A stretch of 62,134 bases of DNA, filler included, from Globobulimina sp. (Eukaryota): assembly GCA_003354225.1 (NCBI GenBank). It is 8 parts of 8 records of this genome, joined end to end, with 100 filler letters (N's around TTAATTAATTAA, not from the genome) between each part and the next. Parts side by side here need not be neighbours in the genome. Positions count along the whole stretch, not along the records: positions 46,749 to 54,392 come from PIVH01000134.1; 7 more parts are not named here. One strand, written 5' to 3'. The notes under the pieces are model-generated. The model ran no database searches. It was given only the letters and a program-made list of their open reading frames with translations, and had not been told where the DNA came from. Positions 7,831-54,392 of this stretch are shown piece by piece; within the stretch, counting starts at the first letter, position 1, and every line of letters starts with the position of its first letter. The position numbers were made by a program, and so were the translations under genes.

Positions 7831-8285
7831 AAATTTGTATACTATTTGTATACCGAAATTTGTATACTATTTGTATACCGAAATTTGTATACTATTTGTA
7901 TACCGAAATTTGTATATTATTTGTATACCGAAATTTGTATACAGAAATTTGTATATTATTTGTATACCGAAATTTGTATACTATTTGTATACCGAAATTT
8001 GTATACTATTTGTATACCGAAATTTGTATATTATTTGTATACCGAAATTTGTATATTATTTGTATACCGAAATTTGTATACAGAAATTTGTATACAGAAA
8101 TTTGTATATTATTTGTATACCGAAATTTGTATACTATTTATATACCGAAATTTGTATACTATTTGTATACCGAAATTTGTATATTATTTGTATACCGAAA
8201 TTTGTATACAGAAATTTGTATATTATTTTTATACTGAAATTTGTATACTATTTGTATACCGAAATTTGTATATTATTTGTATACC
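7831..8285. repeat. Minisatellite: 25-bp unit AAATTTGTATAYTATTTGTATACCG interspersed with a 14-bp unit AAATTTGTATACAG
   Basis: A directly visible tandem array that runs to the contig edge. It explains the three overlapping repetitive ORFs at 7835-8301. Confidence 0.95.
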
Positions 8286-8513
8286 TAAAGATTTAATTTA
8301 GTCACCAAAAATGTTTCGATAAGGGTAAAATATTTTACAATTCTCAACAATTAAAAATATGCAACCCTGCCCTCCTGCACCGGCCCTCTTGCTCTGGATC
8401 TTCTTGCCTCTTTCACCAGGGGCACTGCATCTTGTAATCTTGCCTCTGGGTCTATCGACCCGCCATGCAACTCTGTTGCCCCCCTATACATTGATAATAA
8501 TAATCCCTTTCAA

Positions 8514-9513
8514 ATGTTAATAAATGACAACGAAGAAAATTTCAATAATTTCATATCATCTTTAAAAGCAGAATCAAATAAAATGGATAATGTTAAGACA
8601 TATAGTTCTCAGGTAAATATCGGCTCGGTTTTATCGGCAATTATTGCAAATATCGCAATTTTTAATTTTGATATAAATACTCCCGCAAATAAGCATGGTA
8701 CAATTAAAGCATATATTAAATATATTGGACATTTAGATAATGAAAAATTTAACCGGTTATACCCAAAAATGTTAAATTCTGTGATGAATAATTTAATTCA
8801 AACCTGTATAATTGACAAAAATAGAAACATATTAAACTTAAATAAATATATTACCACCTTAACAAACAGACAAATTCCAACTGGATTAATTCAGAATAAT
8901 TCTCCCTCCACAAATTCCAACACGATTTCCAACAATTTTGAACCTCCCCGAAAAAGAAGGAAATTAAATAATTCTCAACAAAGTAACACGAATCAACAGT
9001 TTGCACCTAATTTCCCCACAAATTATACAAATAATACAGCACGAAATTCACAGCAAAGGCCCCTAAATCCCCTCACAAACAATTCGCAAACAGCGCTAAT
9101 TCCATATAACCATCATCCAAATTATCAAAATAATGCTGTTAATACAAGAAAAGTAAATCCTCAGCCCATTACAGCAGCAGATTTAGCCACGTTACGTGAT
9201 GATATGACACGTGAATTCCAACAAAAATTCGAAGAAAATAAACGTTTACAAAATAGAATTAATTATAACAATAAACCAAAATTTGACTACAATAATGATG
9301 ATCCAAATACTGTCGAATGCCTCGAATCTGTAAACACAAACAAAATCACAGGATTTATAATTGACAAACAAAAAAAACAAGATCCCATTGTCGTAATGGT
9401 AGACCAAGTCGTTGCAAAACAAAAAAACAAAACAATTACCAAATTAAATAATTTATTAAATACTAAATATACCCCATCGGATGTTTTAACAGATGTTTTA
9501 ACAGAATTAGAAA
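8514..9513 (+). CDS. Element A ORF1 (putative common 5' exon; N-terminal part of Gag-like protein)
   Basis: Homologous to element B ORF1 (AIIANIAIFNF/AILVNIYLFNF; IIDKNRNILNLNKY/IIDKNGYIINLKKY; KPKFDYN/KPTFEWN). Ends ...ELE A|GTTAAT with a phase-1 donor at 9514. The frame is open upstream to 8355 without an ATG, so the 5' part may be missing. Confidence 0.75.
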
Positions 9514-9779
9514 GTTAATACCTTTATATTTCTATTTCTCTCAAATTTTATAATGTTTGCAATGACTTTGGTATAATTTTTAATTGTTTCTGGCGCTTAG
9601 TCTGTGACTTTAAATCACTTCTTACGATTGATACTTTTATTAAATTCACCACCGATTATTAATCTCATTTATATTATACAACAACCGCAATACTTCCATG
9701 TTTACAATGTGTTTCTGTTAGTTTTGTGAATCTTGCTTTAAAATTTCTAAATGCTGTAGTCAAATATTACTTTATTTAG

Positions 9780-10831
9780 ATGGCAATTTTAATTTGGCAA
9801 ATATAATTAAATTATATTCACCGACAAATTCTTCCAAAATAAAAACCATAATAACAAAAAATGATAAATTTGCTGTCAAAATTGAATTAATTTTATTTTT
9901 CAGTGGATTTGTATCGGATGACTTTACTGTTTATGATCTTTATTATAAAATATTTAAATATTTGGATCCTAAAATTAAAAATATTGATCATTTTTCAGTC
10001 TCAAAAGAGTTAAAATCGCTATTTAAAAACAAATGGAATGCATTCAATATGAATCTTTTTATCATTTCATTTATCAAATTGATCTCCGACAGTTTAAGCC
10101 TATTAATACCAACCGATAAAGATCTACAATTATTGTTTCGTACTATTCGTATATTTTGTATGTATAAAATGTTCGATTTAACAAAATATGCCGAATTATT
10201 AATACCATTAATTAAAAATGACCGAATATCAGCTCCAACATTATTTGCTTGGATAAACAAAGGAATTAAGCATGCTTTGGACAGAAATAATTCTTTTTAT
10301 ATTACATTCTCTTCAAATATTATGCAATCTCAATTAACAATGAATAATAAATCATCATTAGACCAATTATTGTCGTCCACATTTTTATTTTATGATAAAT
10401 CTGAATTTTATGAGAAATCCGATAATGTTTTAAATATATTACAAAATGCGTTGATTTTAGATAAGTTAAATGCAGGTATTTCCCCTAAATCCGGTGCCTT
10501 TTATGATAAACAGGTAAAAAATACAAATAATTATAATAAAACATGGTCAAATTACAAACCAAATAAACCGAACATTAATAAACCAAATAATAATCCAAAT
10601 AACATTAAAAATGAACCTCCGAAAAAGAACCGCAATTTAAATCCAAAAGCAGCTGAAAAAGTAATCCAAAATTTATTATCAAAAACAGGCACTTCATTTT
10701 CATTAAACAGCAAATATTGTTGCTTTTATAATGCATATAATTATTGCCGATTAGGCGAAAAATGTCCAAGATCGCATATTTGTATTATTGATAATAAAAA
10801 TCATCCATTAATGAAATGTGACAAAATTTAG
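9780..10831 (+). CDS. Element A Gag-like exon with C-terminal CCCH-type zinc finger
   Basis: The ORF-track start is a TTG, with no ATG at the conserved start. Acceptor TTTATTTAG|AT GGC AAT. C-terminus CCFYNAYNYCRLGEKCPRSHICIIDNKNHPLMKC resembles the DIRS/Ngaro Gag zinc finger. Confidence 0.8.
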
Positions 10832-11137
10832 CCAATTATATCATTTATATGAATATTCATTGATATCTTTATAAAAATTCTTAATATTTGCTCTACATTT
10901 TTATTTATCTAATTATGAATGGATAATATTAAAGATTATTACTAAAATATTAATTGTCTTATTCTAAATTAATTTTTCCAACATTTTTTCAATTTTTTTC
11001 CTACATTTTTTGTTATTTAAATTTCTATCATTAATTTTAAAAATTTGTTAATATTAATATTTATGTTAATATTACTTTGTTTGTTGTATAAAATGTTTGT
11101 GAGTCAATAATATCTACTCTGTACATACTAATCTCAG

Positions 11138-12926
11138 TGATCGATCCCGTAATATCTGAAAAAGTAAAAAATTTACAAACATTACACGCCGAAGGCTATA
11201 AAAACAAACATCATTTCAACATAAATGCATTTAGAAAATACCTTAAATTGAAACAAAATGGGAACTTAGAAATCCATTTCATCGAAAATTGCTTCCCTTT
11301 ATGGAAATCCTTCCATAATAAAAGCTGGGAACCTTCGAACCTCTCAACAAAAATTAATAATTTAGTATGTACTAAAAATGATATTATTGCATTTATTGAT
11401 AAAATATCTGAGGAGTGCCAATTAGGCCAAATTGAGCCTATCAATTACGACCCAAAATATATATTAATGATCTTTGGAACACCAAAAAAAGATGAATTTG
11501 GTTTATATACTAAAACGAGAGTAATACGTAATGGCTCATTTCATGCATCCGGCAAAACAGCAATAAATCAATGGATTCGTAAAGAAAAATGTAATATGCG
11601 GGACCTCCCTAATTTGAAAACATACACCAAATTACTTATAAATAATGAATATATGTCCTTGCGTGACTTGGCAGACTTCTTCAGACAAATAAAACTGCCT
11701 GAAAGTGACGCGGATTTCGTTGGATATTCTTTATTTGGCCTACGATTTAGAGATCGTAGCCAACCGTATGGTGTATCCTCAGCACCCGGCAATTCCCAAT
11801 ACTTCTCAACAATTTTGGTTTGGATTCTGAATAATTGTGTACTTAATAAAAAACAGCAACATTTAATAAATTCAATTTTAGTCCATATCGATGACTTTGT
11901 CATCGCCGCAAAATCCAAAACCGACTGCCGTTTATTAACAAATTTATTCGATAACTTATTACGCGAATTAAAAGTAAAAATCTCTGAGCATAAATCTGTA
12001 GATTGTGTAAGGAAAGGAGTTATTTACGGTATTTATTGGAATTTGGCAAATAAAACACTCAAAATACCTGATTTAGCCTTAAAACAACTTAAATATTTTA
12101 TCTCTTTAGTCATAAAATACAGAATTGCAACGGGCCGCGCTTTGGAATCATTAACTGGCAAAATAATGCATTGGAGCCAGTTAAACAAAGCCACAAAAGC
12201 CTTAGCATACAGATCATTGGCTTATATTCATAAAAATATACGTAATGGCCGCTTAAATAAAACAGATTGCATAATATTACCCATTTCTGTTATCAATGAT
12301 TTACGTTTTTGGCTTAAATGGATTGATAATATTAAAATTGTGTCAATGTATACAATCTTAAACAATCCATCGATAAATGTGTTTGCTGCAACTGATGCGT
12401 GCAAATTTGGTGCAGGCTATGTCATTGATTCTTTATTTGCAAAATATAAATTCAATAAAAAGGATTTAAACCTCTCCATTAATCAAAAGGAGGCTCACTG
12501 TGTCCTAACACTCATCGAATCACATAAACGTTTATTAAATTGTATATTGATAATGCATCATGTTATTATTCAATGATTAGAAAATGGTCGACGTCGTATA
12601 ATATGATGATATTCGTATTTGAATTATGTTTATTAATGATAAAATACAAAATTTATATCCATTTTGTATGGCTACCATCAGCCTTTAATTTTTTACCAGA
12701 TCGATTGTCTAGATTTAAAATGACGGAATTCCATGAATTATGTACCAATTTTAATCTAAATTTAGTTGAAACCACATATGATTATTTTGGCAGATATCAA
12801 TTTGCCAATAATCCCTTAATGAATTATGAAAATGACATGGATGAATATGCAAAATTCATTAAATGGCTAAAACAACCATTAAATGTCAGAGCTGTCTCGC
12901 CATATAAATGTTATATGAAAATATGA
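11138..12926 (+). pseudogene. Element A reverse transcriptase-RNase H, frameshifted within RNase H at about 12540
   Basis: RT motifs PKKD...RVIRNGS, RDLADFFRQI, QPYGVSSAP and VHIDDF. RNase H motifs ATDAC, INQKEA, YIDNAS and N.LPDRLSR. Alignment to element B indicates a deletion of about 16 nt between ESHKRLL and LYIDN. Confidence 0.88.
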
Positions 12927-12976
12927 TTATAAACTCATTTCCAGTCTAATTTGCCCATTTTACGAGTGATTCAAGT

Positions 12977-13280
12977 TTAGCATTCCCAAAAATGCTCTCT
13001 TTAATATGTAAATTATATTATTATTTATATAATGCTTCTGTATAAATTCGTATAAATAATGATTAAATTATTAGTTTTAATGTATTTACTATCACTTAAA
13101 TCGCTAAAATCAAATTAAATTTGTGTTATTCGCATCAATCTAATAATTATGCATTGTATAATATGTTCAATTTAAATTTCTATCGATTCAATTTATATTA
13201 AAATGCCTTGACAAAATATAACTTGCCGTTTAATATAATGTTTCTAAAAAGACATATTAGCATTCCCTAAAATGCTCTTT
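12977..13280 (+). repeat. Two copies of a 24-nt hairpin-forming repeat TTAGCATTCCC(A/T)AAAATGCTCT(C/T)T in the pol-YR spacer (12977-13000, 13257-13280)
   Basis: Direct repeat with 22/24 identity; each copy has an AGCATT/AATGCT stem. Confidence 0.7.
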
Positions 13281-13671
13281 TTGTCTCTTGATATTCTAAA
13301 TTTACAAATTTTAATATTAATATTCAATATTTAAATGTTTACAATGGCCTCCTCAGACCGCTCAGAATTCAATGGAATTCGACTTAATATGCTCTATTTC
13401 TGTTTATCTGAGCTCGTGTCACGTTCCCCTGATGAAGGAAACTAAAGTGACTAAAACTGTTTTCGAGCTAAATTTTAAAATATACTTCGAAACTTTAGTG
13501 AAACCCTACAAGCTTTAAACAATTACATTTTTAATATTGTCTTTTGTTAATCGTTCTGGGCATTATTGTTTATCATTTTTGTCTTATAATTTGTGTGAAT
13601 TTTTTGCAAACAATCAATACTTTTTTGCAAACAATCAATTTTTAAATTTAAATTATTTTGTGTGTATATAG

Positions 13672-14888
13672 AATTCTTTCATGCCCGTTTAGCTAATAAT
13701 CGTATTGCCCCTAAAGACCCCAAAAATACACAACATATTCAAAAAATAAGATCCCGCGATAAAGTACATTTAACAAAAATACATTATGTTTCCAGTTTGC
13801 GAAACTGGTCAAAATATTGTTTAACAATCGATGAAGATCCATTGCAAATGCCATTGGACCCGCTGACGATAACGTATTGGTTCTCCGAAAGAGCACTACA
13901 ATTAGGCAGCGTCCAATCAATTGATACTTGGCAGTCAACATTAATATGGCTATGCAAATTATGTGGAGCCAATACTGCATGGAAAGGTGATATGGATTTT
14001 AAGGATTTTAAAAGTGGCTTAAAAATCGAATATTGGAAGAATGCACTAAGCAGACTTCCATTTGAATTAAAACACATAATAATGTATACAAAATTTTATA
14101 AAGCGTATGGAAAGCACCTATTAACAATCGATATTGATAATTTATTGAAGGTATTAATTGCGCAAATCTACTTTTGCTCAATGTCGAGACCGTGCGAATT
14201 AATAATATGTAAATCAAATAAAACTAAATTTGGTGTTAAATTAAAACATGTTTTTCATATAAATACAGCACCAAATAAATTAAATTGGTACTTTAAATTA
14301 TTTGTTGTTTCCTTCAAAAATCAAAAATTCAAAAGTGTTATTAAGAGAGTAATCATAGGAGACTCCAGATGCGGTCATAAATATATTAAAAATACACAGA
14401 AACACTGTCCATGCAATTATTTAAACCCATATCTATTACTAAGTATATATTTAGACAGATCATACAAATATGCATTACAAAACAAATATTTTACAATAAA
14501 TAAAAATCAGAATTTATTCAGATTTAAAAATAATATAAATGCCGTAACTACGGACTTATTAAACATAGCGAAAGAAATCACCATAATTTGCAATCTATCT
14601 GAATCTGAGCGGTATACTTCCTATGCCTTCAGAATTGGTGGTGCTTCTCTCGCCAATAATAACCAAATACCACATCCTAAAATCCTAAAATATGTCGGCT
14701 GGAAGCCATCGAATTTGCCGCATGTTTCTTACAGATATATGTACTTCAAAGAAGAACATTTTGCGACCTTTATTCGTGAATTAGTCCATGGATATAATTT
14801 TGAAAATAATAATGAGTTTAATTTGAATAATAATACAGGGCAAATATTTGATCCATGGGCAAATCGAGTTGACTACAAAGACTGGTAA
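13672..14888 (+). CDS. Element A tyrosine recombinase
   Basis: MSRPCEL (catalytic R), SFKN (K), SYAFRIGGAS (HxxR box with Y), VGWKPS (W) and YRYM (catalytic Y). N-terminal Y...LRNW..YC core-binding region. No ATG at the ORF start; acceptor TATATAG|AA. Confidence 0.9.
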
Positions 14889-15351
14889 TATCCATATAAT
14901 AATTCTCTCTCTTCATACCACAAAGTGATAACCACAAATCTGTAACTCCCCATAGTGATTTATTTCCAATGCGGTTTTATGTCTGGCACTTTTGTATATG
15001 TTGTTGTAGCACCAGTCTTTAGTTAGTGTTTGTTTGGGTGACTTTAAGTTTTCGTGTTTGGTTTTTGTTTCCCTCTCACAAATTTTAGTCCCCTCTACGT
15101 TCCTTTTCAAATTCCTTTAACGGCCACAGGTTTTAAAAAGATAAAATTTAGTCCTACGGGCAACGGGGTTTTATTTATATTTTATGGTGTATTGTACCAT
15201 AAAATAATACTATTGATTGGTTTATTTCTACCAATTAATAACATCAATATTAATTTAAATTTATTTCTCCCGTTTGTTCAAATATAAATCAAGTGGTCAT
15301 CACTGTTACCACTAACTTGAAATCAGTAATTAAATAAAAGTTATTAAGTTA

Positions 15352-15528
15352 TCACAACAATTCTTTTAATTGCTCATTTCGTAAATTTAGCATTGTCTGT
15401 GTTCGCTGTTTCTCCCTTTCATACTCAGTGACAGTCTTTTCCAGCAACCTCTTCAATCTGTGATTTTGTGCATTTTTCTTTTCCAACACAACTTGCATTC
15501 TGGTTTGACATTCTTCCATTAACTTTTC
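15352..15528 (-). CDS. C-terminal coiled-coil fragment of a probable host gene (5'-truncated by the contig end)
   Basis: Manual translation: EKLMEECQTRMQVVLEKKNAQNHRLKRLLEKTVTEYEREKQRTQTMLNLRNEQLKELL**. It bounds the right end of element A. Confidence 0.55.
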   Translation of the reverse strand, partial: EKLMEECQTRMQVVLEKKNAQNHRLKRLLEKTVTEYEREKQRTQTMLNLRNEQLKELL

Positions 15529-46648: not shown

Positions 46649-46750
46649 NNNNNNNNNNNNNNNNNNNNNNNNNNNNNNNNNNNNNNNNNNNNTTAATTAA
46701 TTAANNNNNNNNNNNNNNNNNNNNNNNNNNNNNNNNNNNNNNNNNNNNTT

Positions 46751-47224
46751 AATCCCTATCAATTATTATTTACATATTTAAAACGTTGCCATAAACTATC
46801 ATTAAATTCAAATACATTCACGTATACAAATTCAAGCCCAGCATTCAGATTAGAAAATGGAATATCGGCAACAACTAAATTCTTAGGCAAAATTGCAAAA
46901 GAAATTGCAAAATTAACTAATGAATCAGAACCAAAGAGATTAACTGGTTATTCTTTCAGAATTGGAGGTGCGACGCTATCGTGTATGCAACAAATACCAC
47001 AACCTAAATTATTAAAATATGTAGGATGGAAACCGTCGCACTTACCGCATGTTTCAATGAGATATATGCGTTACAAAGAAGTAGATTTTAAAACTTTTGT
47101 TTTTGAACTACTTCACGGATCAAATGAAGTATCACATATTAATCAATTATCAACATTTAAAATAACAGCAGAAATATACGATCCATGGACTACAGATTTA
47201 GACAGAAAAAAAATATGGGATTAA
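46751..47224 (+). CDS. Element B tyrosine recombinase, C-terminal part
   Basis: Manual translation from the contig start: NPYQLLFTYLKR...IAKEI...EPKRLTGYSFRIGGATL...IPQPKLLKYVGWKPSHLPHVSMRYMRY...IYDPW. Colinear with the element A YR. Confidence 0.9.
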   Translation, partial: NPYQLLFTYLKRCHKLSLNSNTFTYTNSSPAFRLENGISATTKFLGKIAKEIAKLTNESEPKRLTGYSFRIGGATLSCMQQIPQPKLLKYVGWKPSHLPHVSMRYMRYKEVDFKTFVFELLHGSNEVSHINQLSTFKITAEIYDPWTTDLDRKKIWD

Positions 47225-47814
47225 TCAATTAAAAGTTAACAAACAATCAAATTAAAATTTGCAACAAATCAATAAACTTTCAATTAATTGCCTTAAAATA
47301 ATTCACAAATAAATTCTCCAAATTAATTAAAATTATTCCTCTCTTTTTATCTTTAAAATTATAAATAATTTTTCCTAATCATTTAATTATATTGCGCCTA
47401 TAAATAAATAATAAGTGATAAATGCGAGCCTACGGGATATGGGGATTATATATACTAAAATTGTCTCCATATAAATTAATTTAATTTAATTCAATTCTTT
47501 CTCCCGTTTGCTTGAAATAATATAAATAAAGAAAGAAGAAACAACAGTTATTATAAATCATAATAATAAACGTAGAGCAATTATTCTGCTTATAATGACT
47601 TTGTGAATGTGTGTCTTTTTGTTGTTGTTGAAGTGAAGTTTTTTATCTTTGAACTGAACTTCAACAAACTTTTTACCCTCGCCTCTGAATCCAGACTCCT
47701 TGCAAAAAAGTACAAAGTGATAAGTAATCACACAAATTAACAAACATATCATACAAACTATTAACAAACTTCCTTAACATATTAATACAAACAACTTCCC
47801 CAATTCCATTCAAA

Positions 47815-49558
47815 ATGACATCAAATAAACATGAATTAGAAGATAATGCAAATGAAGTATCAAAGTTCATATCTGAACCTGTAAAATTCAGCGAAATTGA
47901 TGTTGTACAGTTATATGCAACAATGGCTGATCAAATTGCAAAAATAAATGAACAAAACTGGTTAATATCGTTTCGTAAAAATGTCCTTAAATCAAAACCT
48001 TCAAATATCGCAAATTCCGATAAAATTGCATATTTAACCCAAGTTGAAATAGTAATATTATGTTATTATTTAAAATCATTATTATCAAAGGTTTATTTTA
48101 GCCCAGCAAAGAATCGAACAACTTTTGAATCATTAAAATTATTTCTTAATACAATATTTAAACATTGTATTTATGATAATAAACATCGCTCCCTTTTTGA
48201 CATAGTAATTTCAGTCGCAACGCCAATTTCCGATAAAGACTTTAAAAATTTAAGAGAAATAAAATACAAATCCGAATACAAAAAATATAAATTAATCACA
48301 CAATTTGATTACATCAATTATTTAGATTTATTATTATCAAATAAAACTAATAATATAATTAACTTAAATTTATCCCATTCCCAAGATGAGATTGATAATG
48401 CGGAAAGTGATGATTTTAAACATCCAAATTATAATGGAATGTCACATACATTTGGCAATGATTTTACTTTCTCTGCATCAAATCTCTTAAATTTACCTGA
48501 AATTAATAAATATACCAATAAACCCCCAAAAATAAATGAAATTACGTCAATCCCATCGTCCACTCAATCAAAACCAATCAATTCCAACAAAAATAAAAAT
48601 ATAACTCCGACAACAACCTCCAACAAATCAAATAAATCAAATACAAATAGAACAGCAGTAAATGATACATCTTATATGCACTCGCCCTCATTCCCAATAT
48701 TCACCACAAAAGACATTACAAATAAAACTAACTTTGAAAACTTCTGTGATTCCATAATAGGCGAAACATTAAATTTATTAAGCAATGATACGATACTTTA
48801 TCGCCAACAATTATTGATTGCAATATTAGTAAATATTTATTTATTCAATTTTAGTATTTCAATGCCTACCTCGTCTCCAATTAATAAACATATTGCGGTA
48901 ATTGCAAAAACCAAAGATTTAAATTGTTTATATAGGAATATGAGGAAACAAATACCGTCAGTTCAAAAGCAATTATATGAGACAGGAATAATTGATAAAA
49001 ATGGATATATAATAAATTTAAAAAAATACAAATTAGTCCTCAAACATCGCAAAATACCACATTTAATAATTACTAAATATTCGCCTCAAACACGAGTACG
49101 CCCAAAACCCGATAATTGTACCCCTTTATTTGATAATTTATTTCAACCCCAACCAAGAAGACATAAATCATCATCTCCGCTTACTGTGGCAACAACAAAT
49201 AAACCATTAACAAAAAATGATATGGTATTAATGCAAAATCAAATTAATACGGCAATTAACTCTAAATTTGATTTATTAAAACAAGGTTTAGATCGAAGAG
49301 AATACGCAAAAAAACCTACCTTTGAATGGAATGAACATAAATCAAATCATAATCAATTAAGTTCAATTAACACAAATGATATGATTGCAGCAGTAATAGA
49401 TAAAGAGAAAAAACATGAATGTATATTGAAAATTGTTGATGTTGCAATTACAAATAATCGAAATAAAAACGTTGTATTAGTAAACAATTTAATTAATCAG
49501 AAAGTTGGTATAAATGGACAAAGATTAACAAATAAAGATATTGTACGCCAATTAGAAG
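47815..49558 (+). CDS. Element B ORF1 (putative common 5' exon)
   Basis: ATG-initiated. Homology with element A ORF1 ends at ...QLE G|GTATAT (phase-1 donor at 49559). The last 26 ORF codons (IYIYLLFYQIFF...) read like translated intron. Confidence 0.8.
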
Positions 49559-49779
49559 GTATATATATTTACCTTTTATTCTATCAAATATTTTTTATTC
49601 GTTTTAACTTTCTTTTTTTGAATTTTTATAAATTATAATGATTTGAATAGATTGACATCTTTCTTACGTAATAATTTTAGTTCTTTCTTTGAATTTTAAA
49701 TCAATAATTTATATTTTACCACAACCACAACTTAAATTTATTAAAATATATTAAAATGATTTTAATTAATACTAAAAAG

Positions 49780-51017
49780 GAAATATAACATTGTCAAATA
49801 TTGCGATAATGCAATCACCTGCAAATTCAGCAAATATTAAAAGTTTATTAAATAACAAAATTATTTTGTCAATAAAAGCAGATTTAATATTATTTATTAC
49901 TGGCACAAATGATGAAGATTTCTCATTTCTTAATTTAATGTATCAAATAAATAAATATTTAAACAAAAGATGTAAATTTTTGCATAATAACTTTTCAACA
50001 GAATTAAAATCATTATTTAACAATAAATGGAATATATACAATACATTTAATTGGATTAGAGAATATATTAATGATTTAAACATAAAATTTAATAAATTAA
50101 TTCCAAAAACATTGGAAGAAGCAGAATTATTCAGAGTAATAAGACTATGGTTTGATTATAAATCATATGATATTAAAAAATTAATGGAAACGTTATTATT
50201 CTCTGTAAAAGATACAAAATTTGAACCTCATTTAATGGCAGCATGGGTTGATGGAGGTGTTCGTGATGCAATTATAAAAAATCAATGTTTCACAGTAATA
50301 TTCACGAGTAATTTTATGAACAATCATCGAATTAAAAACAGCAAAATAACATTGGATGTATTCCTTTCAAATCAATTTAATAATTATTCCAGTGAGGATG
50401 CACAAAATAAATCAAATTTAATTACAAAAACAGATAAAATTAAAGACCGAAGGAAAGCTGGTAATAATCGAGAATCAACAGATAACGACGCATATTATTA
50501 TCGTCAGAGAGAATCGAATGAAAATAGATATAATCCTCCTCCATATCGAGAGCGTCGTAACAGAAATCATCGAGATCGGCGTAATCGAAATAGGGATACA
50601 GATAAAAAAGGTGCGTATCAACAAAATGAAAATACTCAAAATAATAATACTCGAAATTACAATCCAGAATACAATCGAAATAATAATGATGATTACAAAC
50701 GAGGATACCGAAATTACCGTGATAATGTTAGGAATGACTATGCAAAATATGACAGAAATTATGAGCAGCAAACAAGATCAGATTATCCTCGTAGTAATCG
50801 ACAGAATAAGCAGCCAAATGTATTAGTTGAAGCTGTAAAAGAATGCAAATCATTGTTGAGAGGAACTGGGAAATATTATTCTCTCAAATCACAGCAATGC
50901 GCATCATACAATGCAAATGATTCATGTTACAAAGGTGCCGAAAATTGCCAACGTGATCATAAATGTATATTACATCCAAGAGATAATCATCCATTATGCA
51001 AATGTCCCTCGTTATAA
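49780..51017 (+). CDS. Element B Gag-like exon with Arg/Asn-rich region and CCCH zinc finger
   Basis: Acceptor ACTAAAAAG|GA AAT ATA ACA TTG; ELKSLF.NKWN shared with element A; C-terminus CASYNANDSCYKGAENCQRDHKCILHPRDNHPLCKC. Confidence 0.8.
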
Positions 51018-51350
51018 ATAAAAATAAAACTAATTTAATACCAAATTCTAATAAATTAATTTCCAAATAATACAATTTACCAAATAAGTTTCTTTAATCA
51101 TTACAAAACAGTATTATTTAAATTTATTCATTGAATTTTATTAATTGTTACTTAACTTATTGTTTATATGTAAAATAATTTAAATTTTCTAAATTTCGCC
51201 AACATATTTCCAACTTTGTCAATTAAAAAACTAAATAAAATATAAATTTCTTGTCGCTAATACTTATTTAATATATAAAATAAGTCCCCTTTGTCGCAGT
51301 GGTTGTGGTAATTTCTTTGCTTAAATTCTAAAAATCTTTCTTTTATTCAG

Positions 51351-53176
51351 AAATATCTCCAGAATGTGCCTCAAAATTAAAAAATCTCCAAAAATTACAT
51401 AGCGAAGGATCTAAATTTAAAAATGATTTAAATATCAAACAATTCAAAAAATATTTGAAAACAAAACAAAATTCAAAACTTGTAATTAAATATGTTGAAC
51501 ATGGATTTCCTTTATTTCTTAAAACGCATAACAAAACTGACCCGAATGGAGTACCTTTGTCACCTCTCGAACTTTCAACAAATATTAATAACATTGCCAA
51601 CTCCTTAAATGATGTAAAAGCATTTATTGATAAATTAGCAGAAGAAGTAAAAAATGGACAAATTGAGCCAATTTATCATAATGCAAAATATTATTGCATG
51701 ATTTTTGGAACTCCCAAAAAAGACGAAAAAGGATTTTACACAAAAGTCAGAGTAATAAGAAATGGTTCATACCACGAACAAGGCAAAACTGCCATAAATC
51801 AATGGATAAATAAACAAAAATGCAAAATGAAAAACCTCCCGAACATGATACAATACATAAAATTATTAATTAATAAGAATTACTTTGCCTTAAGAGACTT
51901 ATCTGACTTCTTCAGACAAGTTCCATTACCAAAAGAAGACGCGGATTACATTGGATATTCATTATTTGGCCTCAGATTTAGAGATCGCAAACAGCCATAC
52001 GGTGTAGCTTCAGCCCCAGCAAACTCACAGTGGTTTGCCACACTTTTAATTTGGATCATGAACAATCATAAACTCTCCAATGACCCAGAATTATTAAATT
52101 GTATCTTAGTCCATATCGATGATTTCGTCTTAGCAACAAAAACAAAACAAAACTGCTCAAAATTAGAAACAATTTTTGATGAATTAATGTCAGAATTAAA
52201 TGTAAAAATATCTCATAAAAAATCAGTACATTGCTGTCAAGAAGCAATATTATACGGATTATCATGGAATTTACGAAATAAATTAATATCAATACCTGAA
52301 AAAGCATACATTGAATTAAAGAGATTCATAGATTTAGTCATAAGATATCGAATAGTCTCAGGTGCAGCGCTTGAATCCCTTACAGGGAAAATAATGCATT
52401 GGTCGCAATTAAATAAATCCTCAAAATCGTTAGTCTTTAATTCCATTTTTTATATTCATAAAAATCTTAGAAACGGCAACTTAAAAAAATCAGATTATAT
52501 AATATTACCATTGTCAATCATAAATGATTTGAAATTCTGGTTAAAATACGCAGATTGCATAAGATGTGTACCAATGGCACACATTTTAAATTCACCATCA
52601 ATTAATATTTATGCTGCGACAGATGCATGTAACGAAGGAGCAGGATTTGTCATTGATAATGTATTCGCAAAATATAAATTTGTAAATAATGATAAAAATT
52701 GGCATATAAATTTAAAAGAAGCTCACTGTGTATTATCATTAATTGAAACATTTAAACATAGATTAACAGGAAAAGCACTTTTATTATACATTGATAATGC
52801 TTCGTGTTTCTATGCTATGGCAAGGAAATGGTCGTCAACCTATTCGTTAATGATGTTTGTATATGAATTATGTATAAAATTAATGAAATATCGCATATTT
52901 TGTAAATTAGAATGGGTTCCTTCAGCATTTAACTCATTACCGGATGCATTATCACGTGATGATGATGAAAAATTCTTTAATTATTGCAATCTTTTTAATT
53001 TACGATTAAATCAAATCAAACCAACATATTTTAATGACTTTAAATTTGATTTTAATCAAAATAAATTTTATGAAAATGATATGATTGAATATAGAAAATT
53101 TATAAATTGGCTCAATTTATCACCAAAAATAAGAGAACAATGTGATTATCCTTTTTATGGTGACTATAATATCTAG
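51351..53176 (+). CDS. Element B reverse transcriptase-RNase H (intact)
   Basis: Acceptor CTTTCTTTTATTCAG|AA ATA TCT CCA. RT motifs RDLSDFFRQV, QPYGVASAP and VHIDDF; RNase H motifs ATDAC, INLKEA, YIDNAS and NSLPDALSR. Confidence 0.92.
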
Positions 53177-53778
53177 AAATTACTTGAATTATTACATATA
53201 AATGATAAATTGCTCAAAATTGTGTTTATTTCAATTAAAATACCAATTAATTAATATTGAATAATTAATAAAATGTGTTTCTATCTATAAATGCTATAAA
53301 ATTGTATAAAATTTCTAATTAATTAAACTGTTTAAATTGTGGCATATTCTGTTGATTCTAATTATATTCAATAACAATATAATTTAACTTGATTGCATAA
53401 ATTGTCAATATAAACGACTTAGCAATTATAAATTCAGCAATTGTACTTATTAATTAACAGACTCAAAACGACTAGTGAGGTCACGAGCGGATGCTCGGAC
53501 TCAAAAGTCAAGGGTACAAAAGTTTACTTATTTTAAAAAAAACTTGCGACTAACAAAAGAGAAACGAACTTTTTAAAATATAAAAAAAGAGATTTCTCCA
53601 CAATATAATTCTGATGAAACTTATGAAACCTCAGTAAAAGTTACTAACTGTTGAAATTTTAAGACCCTAAAAGGATTATAATGACTTTCATAAGCGTCAG
53701 ATTTAAATTTTCTTCTTAATGCACTTTTTCCTTAATCAAAAAATGCATATTATAAATTATAATAATATTTAATATCAG

Positions 53779-54392
53779 ATCATATGAAAGAGAGATTAAA
53801 CAATAATCGTATGGCAAAAAAAGATCTGAAAAACAGAAATCATATTAATAAATTAAAAACAAATTATAATATTATGACAACAAAAGCAAATTATGTATCA
53901 AGTTTAAGAAACTGGGCAAAATATTGTATTGAATATAATGAAAACCCATTTCAAATGCCAATAGATCCATTGGTTGTAACTTATTGGTTCTCCGAAAGAG
54001 CATTACAAGCAGGCAGCGTTGCGTCAATTTGTACATGGCAGTCTTCCCTAAGTTGGCTATGCAAAATAAAAGGATTCACACCTTCGTTTAGAGACAATTA
54101 TGATTTTTCTACATTTAAAAAAGAATTAAAAAAAGAATATGCAGAAGAATCGGATACGAGACTCCCATTCGATTTAAATCACATATTTCTATATACAAAA
54201 CATTATAAATGTTATGGAAAACACTTAAAATATATTCCATTAATTGATTACTTAAAAGTATTATTGGCTCAAATATATTTCTGTTCGATGGCAAGACCAT
54301 GCGAATTAACAAAAATAATAGGAAATGAGTCCAAACCTGGATTAAAATTAGGTGATATCTTTCATAATACAGATGCAGCAAATCCAAATGAT
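53779..54392 (+). CDS. Element B tyrosine recombinase, N-terminal part (cut by the contig end)
   Basis: YVSSLRNWAKYC, DPL..TYWFSERALQ.GSV, RLPF.L.H and IYFCSMARPCEL, all shared with the element A YR. Confidence 0.9.

Follow-up and report, generated by a model that had tools for sequence, protein, structure and literature searches.

A rotated contig and a candidate recombination site in a tyrosine recombinase retroelement of Globobulimina sp.

A retroelement that encodes a tyrosine recombinase (YR) was analyzed in a 62,134-nucleotide (nt) stretch of DNA from Globobulimina sp. (assembly GCA_003354225.1), hereafter the window, which consists of eight contigs of 7730 to 7642 nt each, separated by spacers in which a 12-nt linker lies between two runs of N44. 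The element is carried by contig 7, and alignment with related sequences confirmed that this contig represents one unit of ~7.8 kb in rotated form. Within it, the right end of the element meets the left end at 47554|47555, inside a perfect inverted repeat that may serve as a core site for the YR. On balance, and with modest confidence, we favor a real tail-to-head adjacency in the chromosome, produced by split direct repeats or by tandem units.

Contig 7 begins and ends within one recombinase gene

Frame 3 of contig 7 opens with NPYQLLFTYLKR (NPYQLL...) and runs to the YR stop codon at 47222-47224, and the frame that starts at the ATG at 53784 is still open at the contig end, where its last residues are IFHNTDAANPND (...AANPND). 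Both parts belong to a YR, as an earlier reading made from the sequence alone (the sequence-only reading) had proposed, and that reading had estimated that ~46 codons, or ~140 nt, were absent between the ends of a unit of ~7.8 kb. These estimates were borne out by alignment to two relatives with intact YR genes. Contig 2 of the window (7831-15528) carries a related element whose DNA is 66-70% identical to that of contig 7 and which has an intact 408-amino-acid (aa) recombinase gene. Locus L001 (4141 nt, 85.6% identical to contig 7, with an intact 406-aa YR) was one of four loci, L002 being another, obtained from a metagenome scan with an alignment of the reverse transcriptase (RT). No further relatives came from a viral_contigs scan with the YR alignment or from a genome_contigs scan with the RT alignment.

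Against the contig 2 YR (13662-14888), the N-terminal part of the split gene corresponded to residues 9-205 and the C-terminal part began at residue 255, leaving 46 residues absent once the last three residues of the N-terminal part were allowed for. Against the L001 YR, the parts corresponded to residues 1-203 and 250-406, again with 46 absent (204-249). At the DNA level, contig positions 5155-7643 matched L001 1-2478 and contig positions 3-806 matched L001 2618-3425, giving a gap of 136 nt and a full unit of ~7780 nt (~7.78 kb).

The two contig ends shared no exact overlap of 11-200 nt. Read-derived data were the Logan contigs of the sequencing runs, among which X1 was the sole run containing contig 7 (64% of its words); runs X2 and X3, from the same sample, held almost none of its words, as stray pieces of 18-27 nt. 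One X1 Logan contig links 54385 to 46749 (depth 9.15; shorter side, 41 letters), indicating that the YR halves are contiguous in read-derived sequence and that the assembly graph is a cycle. The circular permutation described in the sequence-only reading is genuine.

The spacer contains a tail-to-head join within an inverted repeat

The interval between the YR stop and the ATG of the first open reading frame (ORF1), 47225-47814, had been read as 590 nt without a host gene; we found the same length and no ORF of at least 80 aa. The end-to-start junction had been assigned to this interval as a whole, and comparison with L001 narrowed it to 47554|47555. L001 is 85% identical to contig 7 through the YR stop and the tail to 47554 (...GTTATTAT), beyond which divergence is complete and an unrelated antisense open frame of 260 aa reaches the contig end. 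Because L001 runs from the equivalent of 47554 into this unrelated frame, it is an integrated copy with its right terminus at that position. Contig 7 continues after 47554 into sequence leading to ORF1, making 47554|47555 a tail-to-head join.

The antisense frame of L001 (3358-4140, minus strand) is Asn rich and overlaps the last 68 nt of the element. It matched no Pfam family above the cut-off and may be a host gene that was truncated by the element or received its insertion. No second copy of the right-terminal block (block B) was found in the final 716 nt of L001. In contig 2, a 58-aa antisense open frame follows a B-like motif and continues up to the contig end.

The join lies inside an inverted repeat to which the right end contributes its final 8 nt as one arm, the other arm being 47560-47567, and the full repeat is present only where the right end abuts the left end. 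Arms of this sort around a short spacer are what a core site for a Cre-like enzyme should look like. Perfect inverted repeats of at least 7 bp with a spacer of 3-8 nt occur at 15 of the 7644 positions of contig 7 (shuffled sequences, 10.3 ± 3.7), and one of the 15 coincides exactly with the L001 breakpoint. We propose that the junction inverted repeat is a candidate core site of the YR, to which each terminus would contribute a half-site.

A 20-mer spanning the junction (47549-47568) recurs with one mismatch at 53748-53767, just upstream of the YR ATG; the chance expectation for such a copy in the window is 0.06. One Logan contig omits 53702-53773, around this copy. The copy was considered as an internal complementary region of the DIRS-1 kind, found not to be conserved in L001, and left as an oddity.

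Terminal blocks A and B also occur in a higher-copy form

Exact contig 7 pieces in X1 had a depth of ~5-11 in the element body. Logan contigs matched contig 7 exactly over 46982-47443 (depth 6.44) and over 47660-48037 (depth 6.93). Depth was 23 in the bin 47259-47513 and 79.6 in the bin 47514-47768. Block B is shared with a higher-copy form in which a left-terminal block (block A), 12 nt, and block B follow one another. This A-to-B joint, in which 47564-47678 is followed by 12 other letters and then by 47442 onward, had a depth of 24.4 in X1 and 3.6 in X3. The left edge of block A is loosely placed between 47555 and 47564.

The resulting unit of ~250 nt (left block, 12 GC-rich letters, right block) is covered 3-10 times as deeply as the full element, and it may correspond to solo AB repeats or, alternatively, to a miniature derivative that is non-autonomous. 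In a further Logan contig, of depth 28.9, sequence matching the leader and the beginning of ORF1 has 108 nt, the ORF1 ATG among them, skipped or replaced (window 47757-47866), which points to a relative of higher copy number whose 5' end differs.

A conserved non-coding block precedes the join

A non-coding stretch that overlaps the tail and block B is far more conserved than its surroundings, and its core is an exact 99-nt match between contig 7 and L001 (47414-47512); divergence at synonymous sites of the genes is 0.4-0.6. The motifs CCTACGGG and CTCCCGTTTG of this block are also present in contig 2, and 47464-47519 (E = 0.003) was the sole significant block in the comparison of contig 7 and contig 2 non-coding sequence. 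RNA folding pairs CCTACGGG with CTCCCGTTTG (z = -2.0). No Rfam family matched 47150-47900 at E values up to 1. From the pattern of conservation, we read the block as a probable cis signal used in reverse transcription or in recombination; alternatively, the identity could stem from recent gene conversion. An apparent swap in the order of other motifs between contig 7 and contig 2 was dropped, the matches having E values of at least 0.2.

Contig 7 and L001 both traverse the 99-nt block, and each retains its particular variants before and after it. Such unmixed passage indicates that the assembler resolved repeats longer than 99 nt, which favors read support for the B-to-A path of contig 7.

A chromosomal adjacency is the favored origin of the join

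The sequence-only reading had interpreted contig 7 as an extrachromosomal circle or a head-to-tail array. The rotated single unit stands, and the step to a circle or an array does not follow from it, since repeats of the Ngaro type would give the same cycle. According to passages of PMC8547959, the Ngaro layout is A1-[ORFs]-B1A2B2, and the genome also contains dispersed solo AB repeats. This arrangement holds both B-to-A and A-to-B joints and could therefore yield an assembly cycle without a circle or a full tandem array; the A-to-B joint at raised depth is what A2B2 or solo AB repeats would be expected to give. Under the chromosomal adjacency that we favor, the spacer would not be host DNA and would consist of the 3' tail and block B joined at 47554|47555 to block A and the 5' leader. 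The YR would act at this join, with one half-site on each terminus and a full site only when tail meets head. The terminal redundancy would be chromosomal: split direct repeats would supply it through their B1-A2 joint, or at least two units would stand in tandem. Tandem units could arise if a circle recombined with a copy already present or with a solo AB repeat. The assembler would then have circled the graph cycle and broken it where the YR gene happens to be variable.

Several observations weigh against this interpretation. Neither L001 nor contig 2 has A2-B2 after block B, and no single contig holds both repeat copies of A1-[ORFs]-B1A2B2. Contig 7 breaks inside the YR gene, not at A or B, where a careful assembler should have stopped had the copy possessed split direct repeats; a break in the YR gene is as in a plain cycle with one variable spot, which favors a full tandem array or a circle over split repeats. 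Placement of the left terminus depends on a single contig start (47564), which lies 9 nt away from the join, and the evidence for the join comes from contigs. At 47521, 47615, 47619, and 47621, all covering X1 Logan contigs differ from contig 7, leaving its own version of the junction without independent support; the sole Logan contig over 47521 (depth 16.1) has a 4-nt insertion. Logan contigs drop rare variants, however, and the mismatches at the four sites thus do not refute the join.

The same differences would be explained if the join were a graph artifact. Contig 7 would then derive from an ordinary integrated copy, arranged as A-leader-ORFs-tail-B between unique flanks, and its B-to-A link would have been borrowed, through shared k-mers, from tandem high-copy A+B units. 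The depth of the junction bins relative to the body fits this explanation, as do the inserted or divergent Logan contigs at 47521, 47615, and 47619 and the finding that integrated copies end at B with nothing A-like beyond. We nonetheless regard an artifact as unlikely, though deserving serious weight. The low-depth variants of contig 7 itself, which are unlike the high-depth form, flank the join on both sides, 94 nt apart, and the 99-nt exact block was crossed unmixed by contig 7 and L001. The join also falls exactly on the inverted repeat, which a random walk through the graph would not explain unless arrays of mini-elements share the junction.

A free extrachromosomal double-stranded circle of ~7.78 kb, sequenced with the nuclear DNA and corresponding to the intermediate that is postulated to be competent for integration in YR retrotransposons, would account for a graph that closes in both directions although none of the 7644 nt is host flank, for a contig left unbroken at A and B (the prediction for a simple cycle), and for a complete inverted-repeat site at the junction of an element whose ORFs are all intact. 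Such a circle seems improbable to us, given that the body depth of ~5-11 is unremarkable and that a tandem array or split repeats would be expected to produce the same contig. In addition, passages of PMC7192593 report that the extrachromosomal complementary DNA (cDNA) of DIRS-1 is mostly linear and single-stranded and that inverse polymerase chain reaction across the circle junction failed to amplify it. It is likewise a long shot that contig 7 is a captured double-stranded circle or a long rolling-circle-like tandem array with a lox-like junction site, and that the ~250-bp A+B units are miniatures moved at the DNA level by the same YR. A case that the sequence-only reading had named among its possible refutations, collapse of long terminal direct repeats (resembling those of LTR elements) from dispersed copies, does not fit and is scarcely credible here. 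Such collapse is a frequent cause of circular-looking contigs, and blocks A and B are high-copy, but L001 passes from the right end into unrelated DNA, with an antisense ORF where A would be expected after B and no copy of the left-end block. Moreover, neither contig 7 nor contig 2 has a direct repeat of at least 20 nt beyond AT-rich chance matches, and an A-to-B joint would be unexpected for an LTR. A tail-to-head adjacency in the chromosome remains our preferred reading of the join.

Gene content and selection

The ORFs lie in the order ORF1, Gag-like ORF2, RT/RNase H, and YR (Table 1). ORF1 had no Pfam match over cut-offs, and the ORF2 homolog of contig 2 matched zf-CCCH at E = 0.004, under the Pfam cut-off. 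The RT/RNase H frame matched RVT_1 (7.3e-11; 42.6 bits, cut-off 29.6) and RT_RNaseH (9.4e-5), the latter at 23 bits, slightly below the cut-off of 24.8. This frame is open from 51332, and its first ATG lies at 51698 (codon 122); the sequence before that ATG (51332-51698) is conserved with contig 2. With no ATG able to start it, the conserved N-terminus requires splicing, frameshifting, or a non-ATG start. On the plus strand, 53177-53783 contains no ORF of at least 80 aa. Between RNase H and the YR, Pfam, the only resource used for this purpose, revealed no methyltransferase domain, and ORF3 gave RT and RNase H matches alone. Contigs 7 and 2 have no long inverted repeats, their best pairs being AT rich, at most 48 nt long, and 70-86% complementary.

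Table 1. Features of contig 7 in window coordinates
Feature	Position	Strand	Details
Contig 7	46749-54392		7644 nt
YR, C-terminal part	46749..47224	+	~residues 250-406; motifs FRIGGAT, GWKPS, MRYMRY
3' non-coding tail	47225..47441	+	Specific to the full-length element; aligns to L001; Logan contig
Ultra-conserved non-coding block	47394..47514	+	~125 nt; 1 mismatch versus L001 (rest of element ~85% identical)
Block B, right-terminal	47442..47554	+	Logan joint entry at 47442; L001 homology ends at 47554
Junction site (candidate)	47547..47567	.	GTTATTAT + spacer AAATC + ATAATAAT; perfect 8-bp arms, 5-nt spacer
Block A, left-terminal	47555..47678	+	Logan contig start at 47564
5' leader	47679..47814	+	Specific to the full-length element; Logan contig
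ORF1	47815..49638	+	607 aa; no known domain; weak tblastx similarity to contig 2 ORF1
ORF2	49791..51017	+	408 aa; Gag-like; C-terminal Cys/His finger
RT/RNase H ORF	51332..53176	+	RVT_1, RT_RNaseH
YR, N-terminal part	53784..54392	+	Residues 1-203, including the ARPCEL arginine box

The YR matched neither a Pfam family nor a PDB sequence profile. Ten homologs were collected, 12 sequences were aligned, and the L001 protein was modeled with AlphaFold (predicted local distance difference test score, 80). The best Foldseek match of the model was Cre, across both domains (E = 9.2e-9), and XerH, the Tn1549 integrase, and lambda Int ranked next, which suggests that the YR adopts a Cre-like fold. Five residues (R171, K214, R319, W342, and Y354 in L001 numbering) are invariant in all 12 aligned sequences, and Tyr316 occupies the usual His position of the H-x-x-R box.

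The ORFs are intact, as the sequence-only reading had noted, and comparison of contig 7 with L001 gave dN/dS (nonsynonymous to synonymous substitution) ratios of 0.06 for the RT; the ratios for the two parts of the YR were 0.10 and 0.12, and dS lay between 0.37 and 0.65. By these ratios, both lineages remained functional after their divergence, under purifying selection.

Related copies in contig 2 and L002

The start of contig 2 (7831-8300) consists of ~17-20 copies of a 25-nt unit with sub-spacings of 14 and 11 nt, followed by 200 nt of GC-rich sequence and then by a shortened ORF1. The contig 2 RT is divided over two frames at 12540-12576. Homology of L002 to contig 2 starts just 11 nt upstream of the contig 2 ORF1 ATG, and contig 2 thus looks like a 5'-truncated dead copy.

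L002 was rejected as a second permuted contig, its YR being interrupted after approximately residue 104. The break (L002 7185-7256) marks the onset of GC-richer DNA and of a pair of perfect direct repeats, each 35 nt long, and is probably an insertion or rearrangement within that copy. The upstream region of L002 shared a single 19-nt match with the contig 2 tail (E = 0.004), which was too weak to be used.

Comparison with known recombinase elements

If the junction is real, it supplies a concrete 21-bp candidate recombination site, half on each terminus, alongside an intact enzyme predicted to be Cre-like and a 125-nt cis block whose conservation greatly exceeds that of synonymous sites, and the integration chemistry of this class of elements would become testable. 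If it reflects repeat collapse only, the element is an ordinary Ngaro-like member from a poorly sampled protist lineage. Among the listings and selected passages searched, which are not proof of absence, we found no paper on YR retrotransposons in foraminifera or on YR retrotransposons in tandem head-to-tail arrangement.

By its sequence features, the element appears to be Ngaro-like rather than DIRS1-like, following the definitions of the two groups given in parts of PMC4157794 and PMC3266345. Like DIRS-1 of Dictyostelium and DIRS1-like elements, as portrayed in portions of PMC7192593 and PMC3266345, it is a YR-encoding retroelement, a type proposed to form a circular junction and to recombine with a short, matching target sequence. 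A circular junction of YR retrotransposons has been suggested since the 1980s according to a passage of PMC7192593, and recombination of DIRS1-like elements is thought to use a 3-bp junction sequence according to one of PMC3266345. Three features that characterize DIRS1-like elements, namely inverted terminal repeats, internal complementary regions, and a methyltransferase domain, were not found in the contig 7 element.

The likeness to Ngaro is closer. The Ngaro types of Cafeteria burkhardae, as covered in sections of PMC8547959, similarly encode RT/RNase H and a YR, have no methyltransferase, and place the YR last; the same sections describe short non-coding blocks downstream of the YR. The higher-copy A-to-B joint resembles A2B2 or solo AB repeats, and the B-to-A joint adjoins the 5' leader. 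Unlike Ngaro, the contig 7 element has an extra 607-aa ORF1 before the Gag-like ORF, and the two integrated right ends found here (L001 and contig 2) stop at B.

The recombinase and its candidate site also invite comparison with Cre and loxP. In loxP, arms of 13 bp surround a spacer of 8 bp, whereas the candidate site of contig 7 has arms of 8 bp and a spacer of 5 nt. The YR differs from Cre in its low sequence identity (13-16%) and in the Tyr that replaces His in the H-x-x-R box. The two systems (Cre/loxP as in PDB 4crx, 1crx, and others) are alike in a two-domain fold, predicted here by modeling, in the conserved catalytic R/K/R/W/Y residues, and in an inverted repeat around a short spacer. 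Taken with its Ngaro-like features, the contig 7 element belongs to a known kind of YR retrotransposon, as a new member.

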